Sequence record: MN882349.1
Origin: Escherichia phage Ec_Makalu_003
DNA: 64,000 bases
Strand: one strand, 5' to 3'
This document shows, piece by piece, positions 1,252-37,616 of this stretch. The position numbers and the translations under genes were made by a program. The number at the start of each line of letters is the position of its first letter. The stretch's first letter is position 1. The notes below the pieces were generated by a model. That model was not told where the DNA came from. It did not search any database and worked only from the letters and a program-made list of their open reading frames with translations.

Positions 1252-2454
1252 TTAATCACGAATGCGTAGAACTCGCTCTAACGTCTCTCGGTCCAGTTTA
1301 TGTAACTCTTTGGAATGATACATGAAACCATTGCGAGATTCCATGCAAGTGCAATCACTATATTTTTCTTCCGCTGCCGCGATTGTCTCCAGATCTTTGG
1401 CGTACTTGCTGGTTGAATAAACTTCTCGGTTACGCCACTCTAAACCAGCCTCATTGAATTTAACAATCTCGTCAAATACCCACCATCCAATGTAGATAAA
1501 TGAAGTTTTGCGCCACGGGATCGGGTGTACGTAACGAAACATTTTAACAACTTCCATTGAACATTTTCTACTTGTACTTGTTGCAACTTCTACTGTTTCA
1601 TCTTCGATCTGTTGATATAGTTTAGCAACACACCAGAATTTGGCTGTGTCATCGTAAGTAGCACTCTCTTTGAACAGATGACCGTCTGGCATGATAGAAA
1701 ATCCTTCCAGTGCTTCGCCGACCTCACTACCGATTAGAGTCGGTGACATTTGCCCTTCGCGCTGCAAATACCAGTTATATTTGATCGTCAAATTAGGCAT
1801 ACCGCTAGAATCGCCTACAATGTTCTCTGACACAACATAATTAAGTAAGATCTCATTACCTAGTGCCACGGTCTTTGATTCCACCACATCCTGATCTACG
1901 TTCATTGTTGCCAGCATGATTTTAGTCGATGCGCTATCGGCTGAATCTTCCGACTCACCCCACACTTTTACAGTATACACGCCGTTTTTATCTGCTGTAA
2001 ATTTTTGGATCGTAATATCCTGTGTTGTGTCTATAACTTCTTCGCCCTTACTCCAACTATAATGTAGTTCATAGTTGTCTGCTGGAGTCTTCCCACCCGA
2101 AAATTTTACTGTTGCATGTAATTCTACGTTTGTTTGTGATGATACGTAGAATTGCTGCGGTTCGGTGATATTTACGATTAATTCAGCTTCTTCCATGAGG
2201 AAAACTTCAGATTCTACTGATTCCATCGTATCGGTATCTTGTACCGTTACTTTATAGCTACCCGCATTTTCACTTGTTGCGTCTGCTACAGTTAGCGTAG
2301 CTGTGCTATTTTCATGCGGTTGGTCGTCTTTTGTCCATGTATATGTCAAATTGCTGGGTAATGGTTCGTCACCCGCTACAGTCGCCGTTAAGGTGAAACC
2401 ATCTCCAGCAAGAAAACATCTTTTGTTAGATTGTATTGATACTGTGAAAGCCAT
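1252..2454 (-). CDS. hoc: Hoc, highly immunogenic outer capsid protein
   Basis: 400 aa; C-terminal HPIPWRKTSFIYIGWWVFDEI and ESRNGF match the T4 Hoc capsid-binding region as recalled; Ig-like repeats upstream. Confidence 0.85.
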   Translation of the reverse strand: MAFTVSIQSNKRCFLAGDGFTLTATVAGDEPLPSNLTYTWTKDDQPHENSTATLTVADATSENAGSYKVTVQDTDTMESVESEVFLMEEAELIVNITEPQQFYVSSQTNVELHATVKFSGGKTPADNYELHYSWSKGEEVIDTTQDITIQKFTADKNGVYTVKVWGESEDSADSASTKIMLATMNVDQDVVESKTVALGNEILLNYVVSENIVGDSSGMPNLTIKYNWYLQREGQMSPTLIGSEVGEALEGFSIMPDGHLFKESATYDDTAKFWCVAKLYQQIEDETVEVATSTSRKCSMEVVKMFRYVHPIPWRKTSFIYIGWWVFDEIVKFNEAGLEWRNREVYSTSKYAKDLETIAAAEEKYSDCTCMESRNGFMYHSKELHKLDRETLERVLRIRD

Positions 2455-2538
2455 ATAAAGCCACTCCCATAGAAAATCCGAATTTAATTAATTGAAATAG
2501 TTGATTGCTATCAACCAGATAACCATTGCGAGATTCCA
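1326..2538. repeat. 18-bp exact direct repeat aaccattgcgagattcca (1326-1343 and 2521-2538) flanking hoc
   Basis: identical 18-mer inside the hoc 3' coding end and in the hoc upstream region. Confidence 0.7.
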
Positions 2539-2549
2539 ATACATGAGTA

Positions 2550-2714
2550 TTAGAATAGTGATGTAACGAGGCCGAAATAGTATCGATCTCGTCTTGGTAT
2601 TTGTTCTGTTATAAAGTCTGCTGTACTAACAACAATCTTTAACAGAAGTGGATGACCAACGGAGCCATAAACCGGACCTTCTGTTTGATGTAATACATTG
2701 ATTTTGTTAGACAT
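2550..2714 (-). CDS. small hypothetical protein, 54 aa
   Basis: ATG at 2714 preceded by AGAGGA; lies between inh and hoc. Confidence 0.35.
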   Translation of the reverse strand: MSNKINVLHQTEGPVYGSVGHPLLLKIVVSTADFITEQIPRRDRYYFGLVTSLF

Positions 2715-2792
2715 GTAGTATCCTCTTTTAATTGCATAACGGAACTACAATTAAAATTATAACAAATATTTCACAACTTTTATCACCCAAAA

Positions 2793-3509
2793 TTACTTGA
2801 GTGTGTGGAATTGGCTATGTTTAGTCTCTCTCACCTTGACAGACCCATCGCGTTTGATATAATAGATCAGTGACTTGAGGGTGTCGTGTACATACGCGTG
2901 CGGGAAACGCTCTGGATACTTCTTCCAATCTGGAGTATTAACGATCCAGTCGAAAATCCACCACGGGCAGGAGTAGTAACCACGACCGCCACCGATCAAG
3001 CAAATGGTCGGACGGAAACCAGTAAGATCACAAAATGAATCAGTGTCATGTGCAGGAGAACGATGCTCTGCTTCGTCAGAGAAAATGTTTGCTACCGGAG
3101 ATTCCACTTTAACTTCCGGTACAACCACAATTTCAACTGGTACTGTGTGTGGTTTGGCTTCTTCTACAACTGTAACTGGTTCTTCTTTTTGTTCTGGTTC
3201 TTTCATTGCTTCAACCAGAGACGGATCAACTTCGTCGAATACCACTTTATCATCTGCGGTGTCTGCTGCCAGAATAAGATCGTTAATACTGGTTCCTTCT
3301 GCCGGAGTTTCTTCTTCCATTTCGGAAGCCAGTTTAGTTAATTCGGTTTCTACGAACTCGATCATGTTCTCTAGTGATAAAGTCTTTTTGACCTTAATAT
3401 CAAATTGTTTTGCGTAGTCAGCTAATTCTGTTTTAGCTGTTTTCTGTGCTTCTTTGTCGTCGGACGCCGCAATAGCGCGGAGTTCTTCGAAATATTCTTT
3501 ATCAAACAT
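2793..3509 (-). CDS. inh: Inh-like prohead core protein (assigned by position)
   Basis: 238 aa acidic protein in the T4 inh slot between hoc and uvsW; sequence-level identity not verified. Confidence 0.5.
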   Translation of the reverse strand: MFDKEYFEELRAIAASDDKEAQKTAKTELADYAKQFDIKVKKTLSLENMIEFVETELTKLASEMEEETPAEGTSINDLILAADTADDKVVFDEVDPSLVEAMKEPEQKEEPVTVVEEAKPHTVPVEIVVVPEVKVESPVANIFSDEAEHRSPAHDTDSFCDLTGFRPTICLIGGGRGYYSCPWWIFDWIVNTPDWKKYPERFPHAYVHDTLKSLIYYIKRDGSVKVRETKHSQFHTLK

Positions 3510-3535
3510 GCTATTCTCCTGATTGGGGGTGTTTG

Positions 3536-3543
3536 TATAAATA
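3536..3543 (+). promoter_or_regulatory. T4-type late promoter TATAAATA upstream of uvsW
   Basis: exact TATAAATA about 40 nt before the uvsW ATG. Confidence 0.5.
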
Positions 3544-3579
3544 TTTGTATACTGTATTTATTGAGTGAGGCTATTCGCT

Positions 3580-5082
3580 ATGCAAGATATTAAAATTCAC
3601 TTTCTGAACTACTCCCATGTTCAAATTGAATGTAGCGATTCAATTTTATTAGAAATGCGAGATTATTTTAGTTTTGAAGTCGAGGGAGCGCGGTTTCAAA
3701 AAAGATTTAAGTATGGCGGATGGGATGGGCGTATTCGTCTATTAGATTACAATGGAAAGTTGCCAATCGGCCTAACTAAAACCGTTGGCATCTTCGCTAA
3801 AAATATGGGTTATTCTGTTTGGGTAGACCCTCGCTTATTCGAGAAAGAACAGGTTACAGAAGAAGAGATCACAAAATGGTGTAACGACTTAGAATTATAT
3901 TCCGGTGCTAACAGGATCACCCCGCATTGGTATCAATCAAAGGCTGTCTTTGAAGGTATTCATCATAAACGCCGTATGTTAGTTTTGCCTACGTCCGCTG
4001 GTAAATCTGCGATTGCTTGTATGTTGTCTCGCTGGTACTTAGAGAACTACGAAGGGAAAGTGCTGATCATCGTTCCTACCACGTCGCTAGTGCTGCAAAT
4101 GCGTGATGATTTTGTTGATTATCGCCAGTTTCCATATGAAGCAATTCATACTATCATGAGCGGTACTAGTAAACACGTAGGTGATCGCCTGATCGTTGTT
4201 AGTACGTGGCAATCAGCATGTAAACAGCCTCGTGAGTGGTTCCAACAATTCGGGATGGTTATTGTTGACGAATGTCACAAGGCCACGGCTAAAAACCTGC
4301 TAAACATCGTTACTGATATGGATCATTGCCAATTTAAGATCGGTATGACTGGTTCCCCTCGTGACGGGAAAGCTAACATGATGCAGTATGTCGGGCTTTT
4401 CGGTGATATTTCTAAGATCGTGAGTATTGACCGCCTGATGGAAGAAGGGCAGGTGACAAAACTGAAAATTAACTGTCTTTTTCTTCGTTATACCGATGAG
4501 GAATGTAGCGCGGTTAAGGGGAGAGAATATGCGGAAGAGATCAAGTATATTACATCTAACCCACGACGTAATAAGTTTGCTTGCAATTTGGCGCTAAAAC
4601 TCGCTAAGAAGGGCGAAAACGTATTCCTGATGTTCCGCAACACTAAGCACGGAAAACTTATGTATGATGCGTTACAGAAGGTACACGACAAGGTTTATTA
4701 TATTGACGGTGGAGTTAAGACAGAAGAACGTGATGAATTTAAGAAAATGGCGGAAGGTGACACTGGCTTAATCTGTGTTGCGTCTTATGGTGTGTTCTCT
4801 ACTGGTGTTTCCATCAAGAACTTGCATCATGTTATTTTCGGTCATCCAGTGAAGGAATCAACTATCGTTCGTCAGAGTATCGGTCGTGCATTGCGTAAAC
4901 ATGGTTCTAAGGATATTGCTACCGTTTGGGATCTTATCGATCATTTGGCGGTGAAGACAAAGAGCAAGAATGCTAAGAAACAGTTTAGCCACCTTAATTA
5001 TGCTCTTAAACATGCCCTTGAAAGAATAAAAATTTACAACACCGATCGATTCGAATATGTCACGAAAACAATCGAGATTTAA
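3580..5082 (+). CDS. uvsW: UvsW DNA helicase (SF2)
   Basis: near-collinear match to recalled T4 UvsW (FSFEV..YGGWDGRIRLLDYN, LPTSAGKS, VDECH, KLKINCLFLRY); ATG 3580 with SD GAGTGAGG; the track start 3565 is a GTG. Confidence 0.9.
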   Translation: MQDIKIHFLNYSHVQIECSDSILLEMRDYFSFEVEGARFQKRFKYGGWDGRIRLLDYNGKLPIGLTKTVGIFAKNMGYSVWVDPRLFEKEQVTEEEITKWCNDLELYSGANRITPHWYQSKAVFEGIHHKRRMLVLPTSAGKSAIACMLSRWYLENYEGKVLIIVPTTSLVLQMRDDFVDYRQFPYEAIHTIMSGTSKHVGDRLIVVSTWQSACKQPREWFQQFGMVIVDECHKATAKNLLNIVTDMDHCQFKIGMTGSPRDGKANMMQYVGLFGDISKIVSIDRLMEEGQVTKLKINCLFLRYTDEECSAVKGREYAEEIKYITSNPRRNKFACNLALKLAKKGENVFLMFRNTKHGKLMYDALQKVHDKVYYIDGGVKTEERDEFKKMAEGDTGLICVASYGVFSTGVSIKNLHHVIFGHPVKESTIVRQSIGRALRKHGSKDIATVWDLIDHLAVKTKSKNAKKQFSHLNYALKHALERIKIYNTDRFEYVTKTIEI

Positions 5083-31965: not shown

Positions 31966-32001
31966 GGGGGGTATATTACTACTCCCGTGATATGCTGTCA
32001 A
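31966..32001 (-). promoter_or_regulatory. early promoter with stem-loop (PeSL)
   Basis: TTGACA followed by imperfect palindrome GGGAGTAGTAATATACCCCC. Confidence 0.55.
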
Positions 32002-32009
32002 TTGCTTTT

Positions 32010-32159
32010 TTATGCAACCGCAAACATCAACATTTGAACATTCTTGGCTGTCTGGCTTTCAAAGTTCTGACATTCTTTGATAATGTCCTCTACTTTCTCG
32101 CCAGAGATCTCCGCGTAAGTTTCGATTGCCATTTTCAGTACCGCGTCAAAGTTGTTCAT
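32010..32159 (-). CDS. hypothetical protein, 49 aa
   Basis: ATG at 32159 after a conserved leader. Confidence 0.3.
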   Translation of the reverse strand: MNNFDAVLKMAIETYAEISGEKVEDIIKECQNFESQTAKNVQMLMFAVA

Positions 32160-32191
32160 TTGGTTCTCCTTAAAGTGTATTTCGTTTCGAT

Positions 32192-32226
32192 GGGGGTATA
32201 TTACTACCCCCGTTATTCAGTGTCAA
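32192..32226 (-). promoter_or_regulatory. early promoter with stem-loop (PeSL)
   Basis: TTGACA followed by perfect palindrome GGGGGTAGTAATATACCCCC. Confidence 0.6.
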
Positions 32227-32445
32227 CTACTTTTTAATGACAAGTTCGAATTTTGCTACCTTGCGTCCTCGTTTATTGAAAGCAACCCACGGACGGTTTT
32301 CAATGTAGAACAATTCTTCACCAATAATGAATATTGGCTGATTGTAAAGGCGACCCATCAGGTCACGTTGGCGAATAGTAGTAGATTCGTATACTTCGCC
32401 TACTACAAAGTGTTTGCTGATAGAGTCGGTGCAAGTAAATTTCAT
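32227..32445 (-). CDS. small protein, 72 aa (paralogue of 59488..59694)
   Basis: shared C-terminal NKRGRKVAKFELVIKK vs TKRNGDPVAKFEIIK. Confidence 0.5.
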   Translation of the reverse strand: MKFTCTDSISKHFVVGEVYESTTIRQRDLMGRLYNQPIFIIGEELFYIENRPWVAFNKRGRKVAKFELVIKK

Positions 32446-32472
32446 TTTGATTCTCCTTTGTTTCGTTTCGAT

Positions 32473-32507
32473 GGGAGTATCTTACAACTCCCAATATTCA
32501 GTGTCAA
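32473..32507 (-). promoter_or_regulatory. early promoter with stem-loop (PeSL)
   Basis: TTGACA followed by palindrome GGGAGTTGTAAGATACTCCC. Confidence 0.6.
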
Positions 32508-32514
32508 CTGCTTT

Positions 32515-32733
32515 TTACTTGTTGTATTCATTCCACCAACGAGTAAGTTTATCGATTATTTTTGTGTTTCTATCCAATTTCTCCCACCGTTTACGCGGGT
32601 TTATAAGCCGGAATAGGTAGGGTGTACTTGTTAAGTGAACTCGGTCAAAATAATGGTTGATAAGCTGGCATTCAATTCTCAATTTCATCTTTTTACGATG
32701 AAAATATGCAATCACTTGTTCTTCTGTTTCCAT
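32515..32733 (-). CDS. hypothetical protein, 72 aa
   Basis: ORF after a PeSL-family promoter. Confidence 0.45.
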   Translation of the reverse strand: METEEQVIAYFHRKKMKLRIECQLINHYFDRVHLTSTPYLFRLINPRKRWEKLDRNTKIIDKLTRWWNEYNK

Positions 32734-32757
32734 ATGTTCCTCCGTTTCGATGCGTGC

Positions 32758-32786
32758 ATTATGCTATACCCCGGTCCGATTGTCAA
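32758..32786 (-). promoter_or_regulatory. early promoter, PeSL family with degenerate stem
   Basis: TTGACA, 17 nt, CATAAT. Confidence 0.5.
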
Positions 32787-32833
32787 CACCCAATAACAAA
32801 AAAGTCGCCACTATGGGCGACTTAGGTTAAACA

Positions 32834-33310
32834 TTAATCATGACCGTGGTTGGCAAGATCCGCTCGTGTCTTATCTTTGTGATTTCCTACGTCAAAGACA
32901 CGATAGCCGTTTTCTCGGAGAACTTTAATCACTTCTGGGTTATCCTCAAAGACTCCCACCACTTCATCTTTATCAAATGATTTAATTACCTCTAATTTGA
33001 TGTGATAGTCTTTACGGGAATCGGTACGGCCTCTCATAAAGATTTTATCAAAACACACCCCGTTAGAAATTAACCAATCAATTGTTTCCATGTAAGCATG
33101 TGAACTTCGTCCGGTGAGGATGTAAATCAAATGCCCGTTGTCGGAAAGAGCATTAATAACACGAATTACATCGTAAATGGGGGAATCTCCCCCACATGCC
33201 TTGTTATATTCGATCCATGACTCGACTTTATCAAGATTTTCGGTTGGCATCTTTGCTAGTCGATGCGTTGGATCTGTGATCGTAAAATCTAAATCGACAA
33301 AATATATCAT
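32834..33310 (-). CDS. HAD-superfamily phosphatase-like protein
   Basis: N-terminal DLDFTIT (DxDxT) motif. Confidence 0.5.
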   Translation of the reverse strand: MIYFVDLDFTITDPTHRLAKMPTENLDKVESWIEYNKACGGDSPIYDVIRVINALSDNGHLIYILTGRSSHAYMETIDWLISNGVCFDKIFMRGRTDSRKDYHIKLEVIKSFDKDEVVGVFEDNPEVIKVLRENGYRVFDVGNHKDKTRADLANHGHD

Positions 33311-34467
33311 AGATATTTCCCGAATCGGTTGTAGTCATCGTCTGTTAAATCGGTATTAACCTGAGATACCAGATACATAATCTCTACTTCCTGCGCTGCA
33401 TTCTGTACTTCGTCAGAGTTCAACCATTTACGCATCCACGGTAAAGGATGACGACGAACACTAAACGGGCTTTTCAGTCCGGCAGCACGCATACGGGAAT
33501 CTGCCAGGTATTCTACATAGGTTTTCAGAATTTCCGGTGACAGGTTAGGAATTGCCCCCATTGCGAATAAGTGATCTACCCATTCTTTTTCTTGCTCGAC
33601 AACATCCAGAAAGATTTTCGTTGCTTCGTCTTCAAGTTCTTCCGCAATCTGTTTCCACTCATCACCATCAGCCCCCGTTTGCCATTGACGAATAATGTAT
33701 TGTGTGCCTTTTAGGTGAAGTTGTTCGTCACGCGCAATAAATTTCATGATCTTCGCGTTACCTTCCAGTAAACCACGTTCGGCAAAGCTGAAAGTACATG
33801 CAAAGGACACATAAAAACGGATTGCTTCCAAAGCATTAACGCAGTGTGCACACAGATAAATCGACGCCATCAGATCTCGTTTTGTATCTTCAAAAAATCT
33901 TCTTGCATCATCTAATGCTGTCTGGTCGTCTCGTTCTTCCCAATAGCGGAGATCTTCTTTTGCATTCTCATACTTACGAATCCAATAAAGAACATCGTCA
34001 TAGTATTGTCCGATAGATTCCGCTCGCTTCATGATCGCAGGGTTATCGATGATCTGGTCAAACTCACTAGCCGGATCAATGAAACAGTTACGCATAATGT
34101 GAGTATAACTGCGGCTATGAATTGTCTCGCTGAATGTCCAGGTTTGTAACCATGTATCGAGAGTTGGATCAGATACAATTGGACCAAATGCTGCGGACGG
34201 TGCGCGACCTTGAATAGAATCAAGTAATGTCTGATACTTCAAGTTTTCTGTAAAGAAACGTTTTTCAACATCGCCCATATTCAGATATTGAATGCGGTCG
34301 GTTGCAAGTGAAATCTCTTCTGGACGCCAGAAAAATGACAGAGATTTTTCAATTAATTCTTCAAATACTTGATGACGCTGAATGTCATAGCGAGCAATCC
34401 CTAAATCACTACCCAGAAACATTGGTTCGTTCATAATATCAACATGTTCGCGGTTAAATACGCTCAT
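33307..34467 (-). CDS. nrdB: ribonucleotide reductase small subunit
   Basis: 386 aa; ferritin-like di-iron pattern; T4 position. Confidence 0.85.
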   Translation of the reverse strand: MSVFNREHVDIMNEPMFLGSDLGIARYDIQRHQVFEELIEKSLSFFWRPEEISLATDRIQYLNMGDVEKRFFTENLKYQTLLDSIQGRAPSAAFGPIVSDPTLDTWLQTWTFSETIHSRSYTHIMRNCFIDPASEFDQIIDNPAIMKRAESIGQYYDDVLYWIRKYENAKEDLRYWEERDDQTALDDARRFFEDTKRDLMASIYLCAHCVNALEAIRFYVSFACTFSFAERGLLEGNAKIMKFIARDEQLHLKGTQYIIRQWQTGADGDEWKQIAEELEDEATKIFLDVVEQEKEWVDHLFAMGAIPNLSPEILKTYVEYLADSRMRAAGLKSPFSVRRHPLPWMRKWLNSDEVQNAAQEVEIMYLVSQVNTDLTDDDYNRFGKYL

Positions 34468-34482
34468 TAATTCACCTCACTA

Positions 34483-34650
34483 TCACTTTTTAATACAAAA
34501 GAACTTAGTATTTCTGTTTATGTCTCTATCCTGTTGCAATTCCTGCATGGCTTCAAAACAACTTTGATGTGATGAAAACTCTACGCTGGTAACAGTTCCT
34601 TTATTATATACCCCGACACTAACGGAAAGCAATAACCATAATGTAGCCAT
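34483..34650 (-). CDS. small protein, 55 aa (tandem paralogue)
   Basis: MATLWLLLSV... hydrophobic N-terminus; TAATG coupling. Confidence 0.4.
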   Translation of the reverse strand: MATLWLLLSVSVGVYNKGTVTSVEFSSHQSCFEAMQELQQDRDINRNTKFFCIKK

Positions 34651-34823
34651 TAGTTCACCTTCTGCTTTTCAATGCAATACAGATTCATAAAGCGTTTATT
34701 GTCTTCGCGGATAATCTCGCGAGCTTTAACGCAATCCTGCTTTGTTGCAAATTCAATGCTTGACATATTTCCGTAATTATACATTGAATTGCTTATTGCA
34801 ATCAATAACCATACAGTAGCCAT
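34650..34823 (-). CDS. small protein, 57 aa (tandem paralogue)
   Basis: MATVWLLIAI...; TAATG coupling to both neighbours. Confidence 0.4.
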   Translation of the reverse strand: MATVWLLIAISNSMYNYGNMSSIEFATKQDCVKAREIIREDNKRFMNLYCIEKQKVN

Positions 34824-34990
34824 TATCCGACAACCTCAAAACATTTATCATCAGGAAGAATAGCCCATTCTACGCCGTATTCATCCTTAACGTAGTAGCA
34901 AGTCCCATCATGTCGAGCATCATATTCATCACCGACAACAAAGCTATCAGCTAGCTCAAAATCTACAGCAACACATTTTAATTTTGCCAT
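34823..34990 (-). CDS. small protein, 55 aa
   Basis: ATG at 34990 with GAGGA, directly after the PeSL at 35022. Confidence 0.4.
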   Translation of the reverse strand: MAKLKCVAVDFELADSFVVGDEYDARHDGTCYYVKDEYGVEWAILPDDKCFEVVG

Positions 34991-35021
34991 AATAAAATCC
35001 TCATTTGTTTTTGATGGTTGC

Positions 35022-35050
35022 AGTATAGCGGGGATTTCTCCCCGCGTCAA
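35022..35050 (-). promoter_or_regulatory. early promoter with stem-loop (PeSL)
   Basis: TTGACG, spacer CGGGGAGAAATCCCCGC, TATACT. Confidence 0.6.
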
Positions 35051-35058
35051 CACTTATT

Positions 35059-37302
35059 TTACAGTTTGCAAGATGAACATTCGCTAGCGTCTTCCGTACC
35101 ATCAGCACCATCACGCACGTTAGCGTAATACAGTGTCTTGAGGCCGTAATATTGAGCAAACAGCATATCATCTAACACATCAGCAATATCGACTTTACCA
35201 GTCTTATAAGTGCTTGGATCATAGGATGTATTGGAACTGATCGCCTGATCTACAAACTTCTGCATGATCGCTGCCAGTGTCAGATAAGGTTTGTTACCCT
35301 TCTTGATCAGTGTCCAAAGCAGGTCAATAACATCAGCATTATTCTCTACGTTCGGAATAACCTGATTAAATTGCCCTTCTTTCGATCCTTTAACCGATAC
35401 AATCCCGCGAGGCGGTTCTATTCCATTGGTGCTATTAGATACCTGAGAAGACGACTCACAAGGCATCAGCGCCGATAGTGTACTGTTACGAATGCCATAT
35501 TTTTTCAGGTCTTCGCGCAGTTCTTCCCAATCCATTTCATACACCGGGTCAACCAGTTCATCTACTGTCTTTTTGTACCAGTCAATAGGAAGTTCACCGC
35601 GACCATAACGTGTTTCGTGCATCAGTTCGCAAGCGCCCTTCTCTTTTGCTAGCTGCACACTAGCTTTAATCAGAGCATATTGCAAGCGTTCAAACGTTTT
35701 ATGCGTAAACTCGTTAGCGTCTTCATATGTGAAGAAATTATCCGCCAGATATGATGCAAAGTTAGTCACACCAACACCCAGAGAGCGACGTTTTTTGGCT
35801 GTCAGTGCTTGTTCTACAGGATAATCCTGGTAATCTAACAAGTTGTCAAGCGCACGCACCATAACCATAGCGATCCGCTCTACTTCTTCCATATTTTCGA
35901 TATCGAAATTACCTAAAACATATGCTGCCAAAGTACACAGAGCAATTTCGGAGTCATCATGCCCCATTGGTTTAGTAGGCAGTGCAATTTCACAACACAG
36001 GTTAGATTGTTTAATCGGTGCTACATTACGAATAAACGCCCCGTGATTGTTCATGTTGTCTGTGAACGCTGGATAGATTCGACCAGTGTTAAAACGTTCA
36101 ATTGCCACCGCTAAAAACAGGTCTTCGGCTTTAACACGAGTTTTACGAACACTCGGATCTTTTTCCAGTTTTTCATAAAGCTGGCGGAATCCTTCCTCAT
36201 CTCGGAAGTACAGATCCCACAACAAGCCACCCGCAACATCTGGACTAAACAGAGTAATGTAATCACGTTTAAGGAATCGCTCTACCATCAGGTTATTAAT
36301 CTGTACGCCGTAATCAAGATGACGAATGCGGTTATCTTCTACCCCTTTGTTGTTCTTCAACACAATAAGACTTTCAAACTCTAAATGCCACATTGGGTAA
36401 TAGAGAGTCGCCGCCCCGCCACGAATACCGCCTTGTGAGCATGACTTAACGGCAGTCTGAAAATGCTTCCAGAATGGGATAACGCCAGTATGACGAACTT
36501 CACCATGCCCGATCTTAGATCCTTCCGCGCGAATCATACCAGCATTGATACCGATACCAGCACGCTTACTAATATACTTGATGATTGCATTTGCTGTTTC
36601 GTTGATGCCCTGCAATGAGTCATCACTTTCAATCACCACACACGAACTAAATTGTCGTGTTGGAGTACGCACACCAGCCATAATCGGAGTAGGCAGAGAA
36701 ATTTGCTTATTCGCAACAGCATTATAAAAATCAATCACATGTTCGAGTCGATTTTCTGTCTCTTCTTGATGTAAACACATACCGATCAGCATATACGCAA
36801 ATTGCGGTGTTTCAATGATTTTCTTAGTGCTGCGATCCTGAACAAGATATTTCTCTTTTAACTGCATCGCACCAGCATAGGTCATTTTAAAGTCAAGTTT
36901 ATGGTCGATGAATTTCTCCAGATATTCCACTTCTTCACGGGAATACTTTTGCAGAATTTCGCGATCATATTTTCCGGTTGCAATATTACGCTCAATATGG
37001 CTGTAAAAATCAATAGGTTGGAATTGACCGTATACTGATTTACGAAGCGCGAACATTGCAAGGTTACTTGCTACATATTGATAATCAGGCGTTTCTACCG
37101 TGATGTTATCTGCGGCGACCTTAATCAATACTTTCTGGATATCGTTGGTAGACATACCTTCTGTCAGAAGTGGTTCAACCATATCAAACAATTCATATGG
37201 ATCAACGTTATGACCTTCGGCTGCCGCTTCCAGAATTTTCATTACTTTTTCTTTTTCAAACGGAACAGTCAGACCGGAAGACTTAACAACATTTTTAATC
37301 AT
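35059..37302 (-). CDS. nrdA: ribonucleotide reductase large subunit
   Basis: 747 aa; N-terminal ATP-cone-like region and catalytic Cys/Glu-rich core typical of class Ia NrdA. Confidence 0.9.
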   Translation of the reverse strand: MIKNVVKSSGLTVPFEKEKVMKILEAAAEGHNVDPYELFDMVEPLLTEGMSTNDIQKVLIKVAADNITVETPDYQYVASNLAMFALRKSVYGQFQPIDFYSHIERNIATGKYDREILQKYSREEVEYLEKFIDHKLDFKMTYAGAMQLKEKYLVQDRSTKKIIETPQFAYMLIGMCLHQEETENRLEHVIDFYNAVANKQISLPTPIMAGVRTPTRQFSSCVVIESDDSLQGINETANAIIKYISKRAGIGINAGMIRAEGSKIGHGEVRHTGVIPFWKHFQTAVKSCSQGGIRGGAATLYYPMWHLEFESLIVLKNNKGVEDNRIRHLDYGVQINNLMVERFLKRDYITLFSPDVAGGLLWDLYFRDEEGFRQLYEKLEKDPSVRKTRVKAEDLFLAVAIERFNTGRIYPAFTDNMNNHGAFIRNVAPIKQSNLCCEIALPTKPMGHDDSEIALCTLAAYVLGNFDIENMEEVERIAMVMVRALDNLLDYQDYPVEQALTAKKRRSLGVGVTNFASYLADNFFTYEDANEFTHKTFERLQYALIKASVQLAKEKGACELMHETRYGRGELPIDWYKKTVDELVDPVYEMDWEELREDLKKYGIRNSTLSALMPCESSSQVSNSTNGIEPPRGIVSVKGSKEGQFNQVIPNVENNADVIDLLWTLIKKGNKPYLTLAAIMQKFVDQAISSNTSYDPSTYKTGKVDIADVLDDMLFAQYYGLKTLYYANVRDGADGTEDASECSSCKL

Positions 37303-37313
37303 ATTACCTCACT

Positions 37314-37616
37314 TCATATATCAAGCGTATTTTCTGGAGTATCGCCGAAAACTCTATTAACGAGATCCGCCAATACTTCACCGTGGCATTTCTTAGGGTA
37401 GCAAGTACAACCTAAGCGCATATGTCTTAATACTTCTAAATGCGCCCGTGTTATCTCACCATTTCGAATCTTATTATACAACCACTCTTTGTATAATGCA
37501 ATAGCTTTCTCTCGTCCGTATTCTTTGGCGGTGTATGGATTTCCCCACATAGTACCACGCTGAATATTAACATCAAAATCGCTATTGTATTTGTTTACAA
37601 CGCGGCATATTTTCAT
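37314..37616 (-). CDS. hypothetical protein, 100 aa
   Basis: ORF preceded by a GC palindrome directly abutting its SD. Confidence 0.5.
   Translation of the reverse strand: MKICRVVNKYNSDFDVNIQRGTMWGNPYTAKEYGREKAIALYKEWLYNKIRNGEITRAHLEVLRHMRLGCTCYPKKCHGEVLADLVNRVFGDTPENTLDI

Follow-up and report, generated by a model that had tools for sequence, protein, structure and literature searches.

PeSLs, described in phages RB49 and phi1, combine a strong early promoter of the sigma-70 type with a stem-loop terminator or attenuator, and are usually located just before an ORFan (PMC2839356). In RB49, 51 of these elements have been catalogued, and a few PeSLs are found in the replication module beside genes of unknown function. 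Promoter and attenuator activity was measured with reporters for PeSL193/192, 206/205 and 211/210 only, and the text of the paper makes no mention of nrdA, nrdB or ORF231-233 (PMC2839356). The same work put forward a model of PeSL shuffling, in which a gene flanked by two PeSL copies is the predicted topology (PMC2839356). Two further systems bear on the locus described below: the interval between nrdA and nrdB in phage T4, which holds the free-standing homing endonuclease mobE, and the uncharacterised phage mini-proteins grouped as PHROG 5579 / VOG8694.

Herein, the interval between nrdA and nrdB was analysed in a 64,000-nt stretch of Escherichia phage Ec_Makalu_003 (MN882349.1), referred to as the window. 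The cassette found there is an ordinary, previously annotated PeSL early-gene cassette of Krischvirus (RB49-like T4-type coliphages). A 1-kb stretch around it shares 99.6% identity with Ec_Makalu_001 and 94.7% with RB49. Megablast gave 58 matches to this stretch, every one from an RB49-like coliphage, with Krischvirus and Straboviridae given in each record examined. The three small ORFs correspond to RB49ORF233c, 232c and 231c, which lie between nrdA and nrdB in RB49 and are all labelled 'hypothetical protein' there; they entered GenBank with the RB49 record AY343333, and are called ORF233, ORF232 and ORF231 here. At the PeSL site, the GEC-3S record carries an annotated promoter, and the Makalu record carries a terminator and ribosome-binding sites. 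Taken together, we consider it likely, though short of certain, that the locus is best explained as a PeSL early cassette heading a five-gene operon, which encodes soluble and dispensable mini-proteins and evolves through PeSLs, a direct repeat and homing endonucleases.

The PeSL and its transcription unit

The promoter consists of two hexamers separated by a 17-nt spacer and matches the sigma-70 consensus at 10 of 12 positions (Table 1). It is preceded by TAAAATAAGTG, and transcription would start near 35015. The spacer itself folds into a hairpin with a 7-bp stem at -15.1 kcal/mol (z = -4.7), a stability that no shuffle out of 200 reached. In the window, TTGAC-N16-18-TATAMT is found 16 times where 0.45 occurrences would be expected, so the promoter is not a chance match; 15 of the 16 occurrences lie on the minus strand, and six contain a G/C hairpin in the spacer. 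In 14 relatives the hairpin and the -35 hexamer are identical to those of the window, but the -10 hexamer is TATAAT, which raises the match to 11/12.

Table 1. Coordinates of the features of the nrdA-nrdB locus in the window.
Feature	Position	Strand	Evidence or remark
nrdA, large subunit of aerobic ribonucleotide reductase	35059..37302	(-)	ORF list; RB49 and Makalu annotation of homologue
nrdA stop TAA	35061-35059	(-)	8 nt upstream of -35 hexamer
PeSL: AT-rich leader AATAAGTG, -35, spacer hairpin, -10	35022..35058	(-)	promoter scan, folding, motif enrichment
-35 hexamer TTGACG	35050-35045	(-)	promoter scan
Spacer hairpin GCGGGGA-GAAA-TCCCCGC	35045-35028	(-)	
-10 hexamer TATACT	35027-35022	(-)	promoter scan
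ORF1 Shine-Dalgarno GAGG	35002-34999	(-)	8 nt before ATG at 34990
ORF1 (RB49 ORF233c homologue), 55 aa	34823..34990	(-)	ORF list
26-nt direct repeat copy 1 TAATGGCTACTGTATGGTTATTGATT, spans ORF2 5' end	34800..34825	(-)	repeat family D3, 88% identity
ORF2 (RB49 ORF232c homologue), 57 aa, upstream paralogue	34650..34823	(-)	phrog_5579 E = 2e-23
26-nt direct repeat copy 2, spans ORF3 5' end	34627..34652	(-)	repeat family D3, 88% identity
ORF3 (RB49 ORF231c homologue), 55 aa, downstream paralogue	34483..34650	(-)	phrog_5579 E = 7e-23; Shine-Dalgarno AGGTGA 5 nt upstream of start
nrdB, small subunit of ribonucleotide reductase	33307..34467	(-)	ORF list; own GAGGTG Shine-Dalgarno
HAD/PNKP-type phosphatase gene, 158 aa	32834..33310	(-)	PF25109 E = 3e-13; ATGA overlap with nrdB stop
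Intrinsic terminator AAGTCGCC/CATAGT/GGCGACTT then TTTTTTG	32795..32823; stem 32823-32802	(-)	-12.1 kcal/mol, z = -4.3
Next PeSL-type promoter	32786	(-)	after intrinsic terminator

Every sequence feature by which Arbiol et al. (2010) recognised PeSLs is found at this site, and on these features the element is confirmed as a PeSL. Near-consensus hexamers are separated by a spacer of about 17 nt, and a stem-loop of a G-tract and a C-tract lies within the promoter. The nrdA stop codon is located in an AT-rich stretch ahead of the -35 hexamer, and a small ORF with its Shine-Dalgarno sequence begins downstream. In addition, gene gain or loss at the element was found in the relative Delraymugoa, where a C5-cytosine methyltransferase gene is inserted between two copies of the cassette PeSL, the topology that the shuffling model predicts.

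The cassette thus has much in common with the PeSLs of RB49 and phi1 (PMC2839356; Comeau et al., 2014, PMC4122927): the genus, the TTGACN-17-TATAMT promoter, the stop codon in an AT-rich stretch, the downstream Shine-Dalgarno sequence and small ORFan start, the location in the replication module, and the link to indels between close relatives. Furthermore, one of the five subclasses described has its hairpin of a G-run and a C-run placed, as here, between the two hexamers. In the cassette, the stem GCGGGGA/TCCCCGC closes a GAAA loop, whereas the other five hairpin PeSLs in the window have GGGGATC/GATCCCC. Also, the cassette PeSL would head a five-gene unit that includes the core gene nrdB, whereas the RB49/phi1 comparison case has a single ORFan. 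As a genomic feature the cassette is of little importance, being one more PeSL cassette in the genus that defined PeSLs.

The layout of the locus agrees with the initial annotation in its main elements. A PeSL at 35022-35050, just downstream of the nrdA stop, had been proposed there, and the promoter match, the spacer hairpin and the motif enrichment bear this out. The coordinates of three ORFs of 55, 57 and 55 aa were likewise confirmed, together with the TAATG sequence at both the ORF233/ORF232 and the ORF232/ORF231 junction, a one-base overlap of stop and start codon. The same annotation had the promoter driving three ORFs, which draws the unit too small. No terminator-like site turned up in a scan from the PeSL to nrdB, and intrinsic termination is first encountered past the phosphatase gene, so that the promoter likely serves nrdB and the phosphatase gene as well. 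ORF231 and nrdB are separated by a gap of 15 nt and do not overlap. As read from the sequence, the PeSL promoter most likely drives an early operon of about 2.2 kb and five genes, including nrdB and the 158-aa phosphatase gene.

The sequence, together with the activity published for other PeSLs, allows a plausible course of expression to be outlined. Host sigma-70 RNA polymerase would start at 35050-35022 immediately after infection and produce a single polycistronic early mRNA of about 2.2 kb, carrying ORF233, ORF232, ORF231, nrdB and the HAD phosphatase gene and ending at the terminator stem at 32823-32802. Ribosomes that finish ORF233 or ORF232 could restart at the overlapping UAAUG, by which the three peptides would be made together. 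Since the G/C hairpin of the spacer lies upstream of the predicted start, it would be transcribed only by polymerases coming from nrdA; there it would probably attenuate read-through from nrdA or stabilise the 3' end of the nrdA mRNA. The PeSL would thus insulate transcription and then re-initiate it. The cassette hairpin is not followed by a U-tract. A search of the literature on RB49 transcriptomics and proteomics returned nothing informative.

Selection and variation of the three small genes

Across 12-14 Krischvirus genomes, dN/dS was 0.315 for ORF233, 0.050 for ORF232 and 0.260 for ORF231, compared with 0.015 for the adjacent 3' end of nrdA. Variation is mostly confined to third codon positions; in ORF232, which is under strong constraint, the variable sites number 2, 1 and 10 at the first, second and third position. 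AlphaFold2 gave confident models, with a pLDDT of 87.6 for ORF232 (from a 38-sequence alignment) and 88.2 for ORF233. The low dN/dS, the third-position variation and the confident models together indicate that ORF233, ORF232 and ORF231 are real protein-coding genes.

Most of the genomes compared have the same 591-bp arrangement between nrdA and nrdB as the window, and comparison of the interval among related phages reveals a hot spot in which the ORFs have been lost, recombined or disrupted in JSE, FL20, G37-3 and kaaroe. In JSE, ORF233 is kept and ORF232 and ORF231 are missing; an HNH/NUMOD3 homing endonuclease gene takes their place directly ahead of the nrdB ATG, with nrdA and nrdB intact. 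SSG23 has all three ORFs and, in addition, the JSE-type HNH/NUMOD3 endonuclease gene exactly before the nrdB ATG. G37-3 and FL20 each have a single recombinant paralogue, which arose via a precise 174-nt deletion with its junction inside the 26-nt repeat, and G37-3 also carries an HNH_3-AP2 endonuclease gene before the nrdB ATG. ORF233 is interrupted by a nonsense codon in G37-3 and by a 2-nt deletion in FL20. In kaaroe its reading frame is broken by one T added to a T-run, and the tblastn pattern points to the same change in FL04 and FL38. Some of these disruptions of ORF233, such as the T-run change of kaaroe, may be sequencing errors. The three ORFs are accessory and dispensable, because natural isolates lack or disrupt them.

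Evidence on the growth of the cassette comes from a metagenomic relative (L024), in which the PeSL is identical though NrdB is only 81% identical. It has no ORF233, and the sole gene between nrdA and nrdB is a single ORF231 orthologue of the same length with 49% identity (L024 P0087). The initial annotation had described the cassette as inserted between nrdA and nrdB. This was an interpretation, and an identical PeSL accompanied by one ORF suggests stepwise growth of the cassette over one insertion. The comparison suggests that a PeSL with one gene was the older state, to which a tandem duplication later added ORF232, and that ORF233 was gained separately; ORF231 is probably the older paralogue copy. 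An exact-match scan of IMG/VR for the cassette PeSL returned two Krischvirus contigs only, the same two that a narrower search for related loci had given. Change of the cassette would proceed by duplication and deletion via the 26-nt repeat at the 5' ends of the paralogues, and by PeSL-PeSL recombination and homing-endonuclease invasion beside nrdB. The locus offers a clean natural illustration of PeSL shuffling, with duplication of the PeSL on both sides of a methyltransferase gene, repeat-mediated loss of a paralogue and endonuclease insertion within one 600-bp interval.

Beyond Krischvirus, the region corresponding to the cassette had been called variable in T4, and the interval does vary among T4-type phages. 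In T4 it contains mobE, and JSE, SSG23 and G37-3 likewise carry an endonuclease there, the same genomic position being a landing site for optional genes. No gene separates nrdA from nrdB in a Klebsiella phage, Salmonella phage STP4-a and Citrobacter phage Moon (Slopek-, Gelderland- and Moonvirus types). tblastn of ORF233 and ORF232 gave no Tequatrovirus match even at E <= 10, so no homologue of the mini-ORFs can be detected in the T4 interval. The three ORFs that lie between nrdA and nrdB in Kosakonia phage 305 were considered as homologues, and no similarity to the Krischvirus ORFs was detected.

A mini-protein family with two invariant cysteines

As the initial annotation had noted, the last two ORFs are paralogues with a conserved pair of cysteines: ORF232 and ORF231 share 38% identity (E = 7e-16). 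Both match phrog_5579 over its full length, 52 of 52 profile positions, and are members of PHROG 5579 / VOG8694, the kaaroe record labelling both as VOG8694. Searches of Pfam, NCBIfam and PDB sequences gave nothing significant for ORF233, ORF232 or ORF231, and a word-indexed protein search returned Krischvirus relatives only. An exhaustive profile search of 1.84 billion representatives yielded 57 clusters at E <= 1e-3, nearly all of 50-65 aa, and the wider family is visible only because such a search was used. To what was known of PHROG 5579 / VOG8694, the present analysis adds a predicted fold, conserved W/C/C residues and genomic contexts.

In the AlphaFold2 model of ORF232, strands at residues 4-11 and 20-25 are followed by a helix at 28-41 and a strand at 46-53, a beta-beta-alpha-beta arrangement in which residues 4-11 belong to a three-stranded sheet; the first ten residues have a pLDDT of 86. 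A search of BFVD gave uncharacterised phage proteins only. Each of the 52 aligned family members has exactly two cysteines, C31 and C50 being invariant, and W5, L7, G18 and F25 are nearly invariant (W5 is invariant in alignment A3). The two cysteines lie 15-27 residues apart; neither a CxxC nor a thioredoxin-like motif is present in the 52 members, and the AlphaFold2 model has no thioredoxin-like fold.

The genomic contexts of the family are diverse. Members were found in a Salmonella lambdoid prophage, within a block of small genes that extends to the integrase gene; in a lambdoid region, with the replication genes on one side and ninB on the other; in a podophage-like 44-kb phage contig, flanked by a DnaB-like helicase and DNA polymerase A; among a block of small ORFs in a 46-kb phage contig; and in a phage contig (L029), where the gene is enclosed by those for thymidylate synthase and DHFR and a glutaredoxin gene is close by. 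In all six non-Krischvirus contexts examined, an HNH endonuclease gene is located no more than 3 kb from the family member, and two of the seven contexts, Krischvirus included, are clusters of nucleotide metabolism. The theme shared by these contexts is that of accessory genes belonging to early or replication regions, in which start and stop codons often overlap.

The products of ORF233, ORF232 and ORF231 are predicted to be small soluble cytoplasmic proteins, neither membrane-bound nor secreted. The typical ORFans of the hyperplastic regions of T4-type phages are thought to bind host or defence proteins early in infection, and our best guess is that the three small proteins would do the same. 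The invariant cysteine pair is unusual for a purely cytoplasmic binder; it may serve in redox chemistry, bind a metal or form a disulfide. A bolder proposal is that the ORF231/232 family forms a new class of phage effectors with a specific conserved target. The target would belong to anti-defence or host takeover, or else to the phage dNTP-synthesis machinery, with which the proteins would act as redox or assembly partners; the latter is hinted at by the fixed place before nrdB in Krischviruses and a td-X-frd place elsewhere. Such a class is unlikely. With its conserved residues and confident fold, the family is a tractable candidate where host targets and defence systems are screened with small phage proteins.

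Export is the next reading to be weighed, and it takes up the suggestion of the initial annotation that a hydrophobic N-terminus serves as a membrane anchor or signal peptide. ORF232 and ORF231 would then be exported or membrane-anchored, with the cysteine pair forming a periplasmic disulfide, for example in superinfection exclusion or modulation of the envelope. The N-termini of both proteins are indeed hydrophobic and uncharged (MATVWLLIAIS and MATLWLLLSVSVGV), and a few family members begin with a signal-peptide-like MK...VWLLIAxS-SGS; the best argument for export is the presence of exactly two invariant cysteines in all 52 members. However, the apolar run spans only 7 residues in ORF232 and 5 in ORF231, and the maximum Kyte-Doolittle mean over 19 residues is 0.61 and 1.07, respectively, with a family median of 0.94 and only one of 52 members reaching the usual threshold of 1.6. 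Neither protein has Lys or Arg in its first five residues, no such residue precedes the Trp in 46 of the 52 members, and in some members just one or two residues stand before it. By the heuristic criteria applied, a signal peptide has a charged n-region and an h-region of at least about 10 residues, and a transmembrane helix is an apolar stretch of about 19 residues; neither was seen. Moreover, conservation across the family is highest in the N-terminal segment (W5, L7), a pattern unlike that of signal peptides, and residues 4-11 of this segment form a confident strand of the sheet in the AlphaFold2 model, where cleavage would leave a fragment of 37 residues. The proposed anchor or signal peptide was thus not upheld, and export is improbable.

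Less probable still is that the family serves as an accessory to nucleotide metabolism, its cysteine pair acting in a redox partner or assembly factor for ribonucleotide reductase or for the dNTP-synthetase complex. The location is suggestive: an ORF231-type gene stands directly before nrdB, on the same transcript, in L024 and in most Krischviruses examined (not in JSE), and the L029 member has the thymidylate synthase, DHFR and glutaredoxin neighbours given above. The invariance of the cysteine pair fits as well, and the C-terminus of NrdA bears the usual CxxC redox tail (ECSSCKL). Yet JSE is viable without either paralogue while its nrdA and nrdB are intact, and no ribonucleotide reductase gene lies near the family members in the lambdoid prophages or in the contig with DnaB and DNA polymerase. 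The spacing of the cysteines and the missing CxxC or thioredoxin-like motif also speak against a redoxin. Furthermore, most early conserved genes of T4-type phages belong to nucleotide metabolism, so that adjacency to nrdB is expected by chance.

The reading that the ORFs are passengers without a function of their own, where what matters is the PeSL promoter and leader for early nrdB transcription, or where the genes merely hitch-hike at a homing-endonuclease hot spot, is likewise improbable: the PeSL is the most conserved part of the cassette and stays identical in L024 despite the divergence of NrdB, several isolates carry a disrupted ORF233, loss of ORF232 and ORF231 is tolerated, and HNH genes accompany the family in every non-Krischvirus context, but the dN/dS of ORF232 and ORF231 and the third-position variation reflect selection on the proteins, which are conserved across very different phages with conserved residues and a confident fold, and adjacency to HNH genes, which are common in phage early regions, is weak evidence.

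ORF233 and its likeness to Gp54

The soluble, dispensable proteins favoured above include ORF233, which is acidic (pI 4.2), matches phrog_16302 and was found in Krischviruses only. It is predicted by its AlphaFold2 model to be a small SH3-like beta-barrel of five strands. Sub-threshold matches to DUF7244 were obtained for 7 of 9 members of the ORF233 family, the best with an E-value of 7.8e-4; the window protein scored 15.3 bits, where the Pfam gathering threshold is 27 bits. A described small protein with a fold-level resemblance is Gp54 of phage Bas11 (PDB 9AXB; PF25180), a non-essential 66-aa protein that triggers the defence system CapRelSJ46, and its authors named the SH3 of RecD as its nearest structural neighbour (PMC11578894). 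ORF233 was considered as a homologue of this Gp54 and rejected, as hhalign gave a probability of 0.3% against the Bas10 orthologue and no match to PF25180 appeared at E <= 1, while the Bas10 orthologue itself matches PF25180 at 1e-34. A 59-aa protein of Bas09, 40% identical to ORF233 over 43 residues, was set aside as a link to a structure because it has no PDB relative. Gp54 has six strands and the ORF233 model five, and the likeness between them is at the level of the fold only.

Sequence variation and duplication of the PeSL promoter

The PeSL (promoter-early stem-loop) copy at 35022-35050, located between nrdA and ORF233, carries TATACT as its -10 hexamer (35022-35027), while the consensus TATAAT was found in all 14 relatives examined, including Makalu_001, which is 99.6% identical over the 1-kb stretch around the cassette. 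With one base altered in this way, the promoter is expected to be slightly weaker. In Escherichia phage Delraymugoa, two copies of the window PeSL bracket an 840-bp C5-cytosine DNA methyltransferase gene (PF00145), again between nrdA and ORF233; this arrangement is a natural example of cassette insertion via PeSL. In addition, the 62-aa ORF233 homologue of GEC-3S was found to contain an in-frame duplication of 7 aa (YDARRDE/YDARHDG), with the reading frame left intact.

Coordinates of promoters, endonuclease genes and small ORFs in the window and in relatives
Feature	Genome	Position	Strand	Remark
PeSL copy	Delraymugoa	749-777
PeSL copy	Delraymugoa	1644-1672
ORF233 homologue	GEC-3S	813-1001
HNH/NUMOD3 endonuclease	JSE	844-1491
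HNH/NUMOD3 endonuclease	SSG23	1359-2033
HNH_3+AP2 endonuclease	G37-3	1679-2218
PeSL-type promoter	window	start 32786	-	ahead of 72-aa ORF
PeSL-type promoter	window	start 32507	-	ahead of 72-aa ORF
PeSL-type promoter	window	start 32226	-	ahead of 49-aa ORF
PeSL-type promoter	window	start 32001	-	ahead of 132-aa ORF
100-aa ORF	window	37314-37616	-	between td and nrdA

Endonuclease genes around nrdB, nrdA and the ORF231/232 family

Directly upstream of the nrdB start codon, two distinct homing endonucleases occur, differing by Krischvirus (see the table). Their insertion point corresponds to about 34468 in the window, the same position as that of mobE in T4. Furthermore, in the Krischvirus-like metagenomic contig L024 (ERZ27235521 k119_183409), an I-HmuI/NUMOD-like endonuclease gene divides nrdA (region 1753-4940) into ORFs of 476 and 324 aa. 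In this contig the PeSL is identical to the window copy, ORF231 is represented by one orthologue, and ORF233 is absent.

For the ORF231/232 family of Cys-pair mini-proteins, each of the six non-Krischvirus contexts examined contains an HNH-type endonuclease gene no more than about 3 kb away from the family member (loci L014, L016, L027, L028, L029 and L024), and in L027 it overlaps the start of the family gene. This proximity could be due to chance, since HNH genes are frequent in phage early regions; alternatively, it could reflect common insertion hot spots. Separately, P0019, a 351-aa protein from the profile search, contains a tandem array of five repeats, each about 52 aa long and similar to the family sequence over its C-terminal two-thirds (…MSFKTRQDCIHA…LYPC…; E = 4e-13).

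Neighboring regions of the window

On the minus strand at 31973-32786, four further PeSL-type promoters of the form TTGACA-17-TAATAT, TAAGAT or CATAAT were observed, and all four have a 57-nt repeat in common. Flanked by the nrdB operon on one side and denA on the other, this is a typical hyperplastic region. At the position of the 100-aa ORF, T4 and the L024 contig have ORFs annotated as DUF4326, the likeness to the window ORF being one of position.
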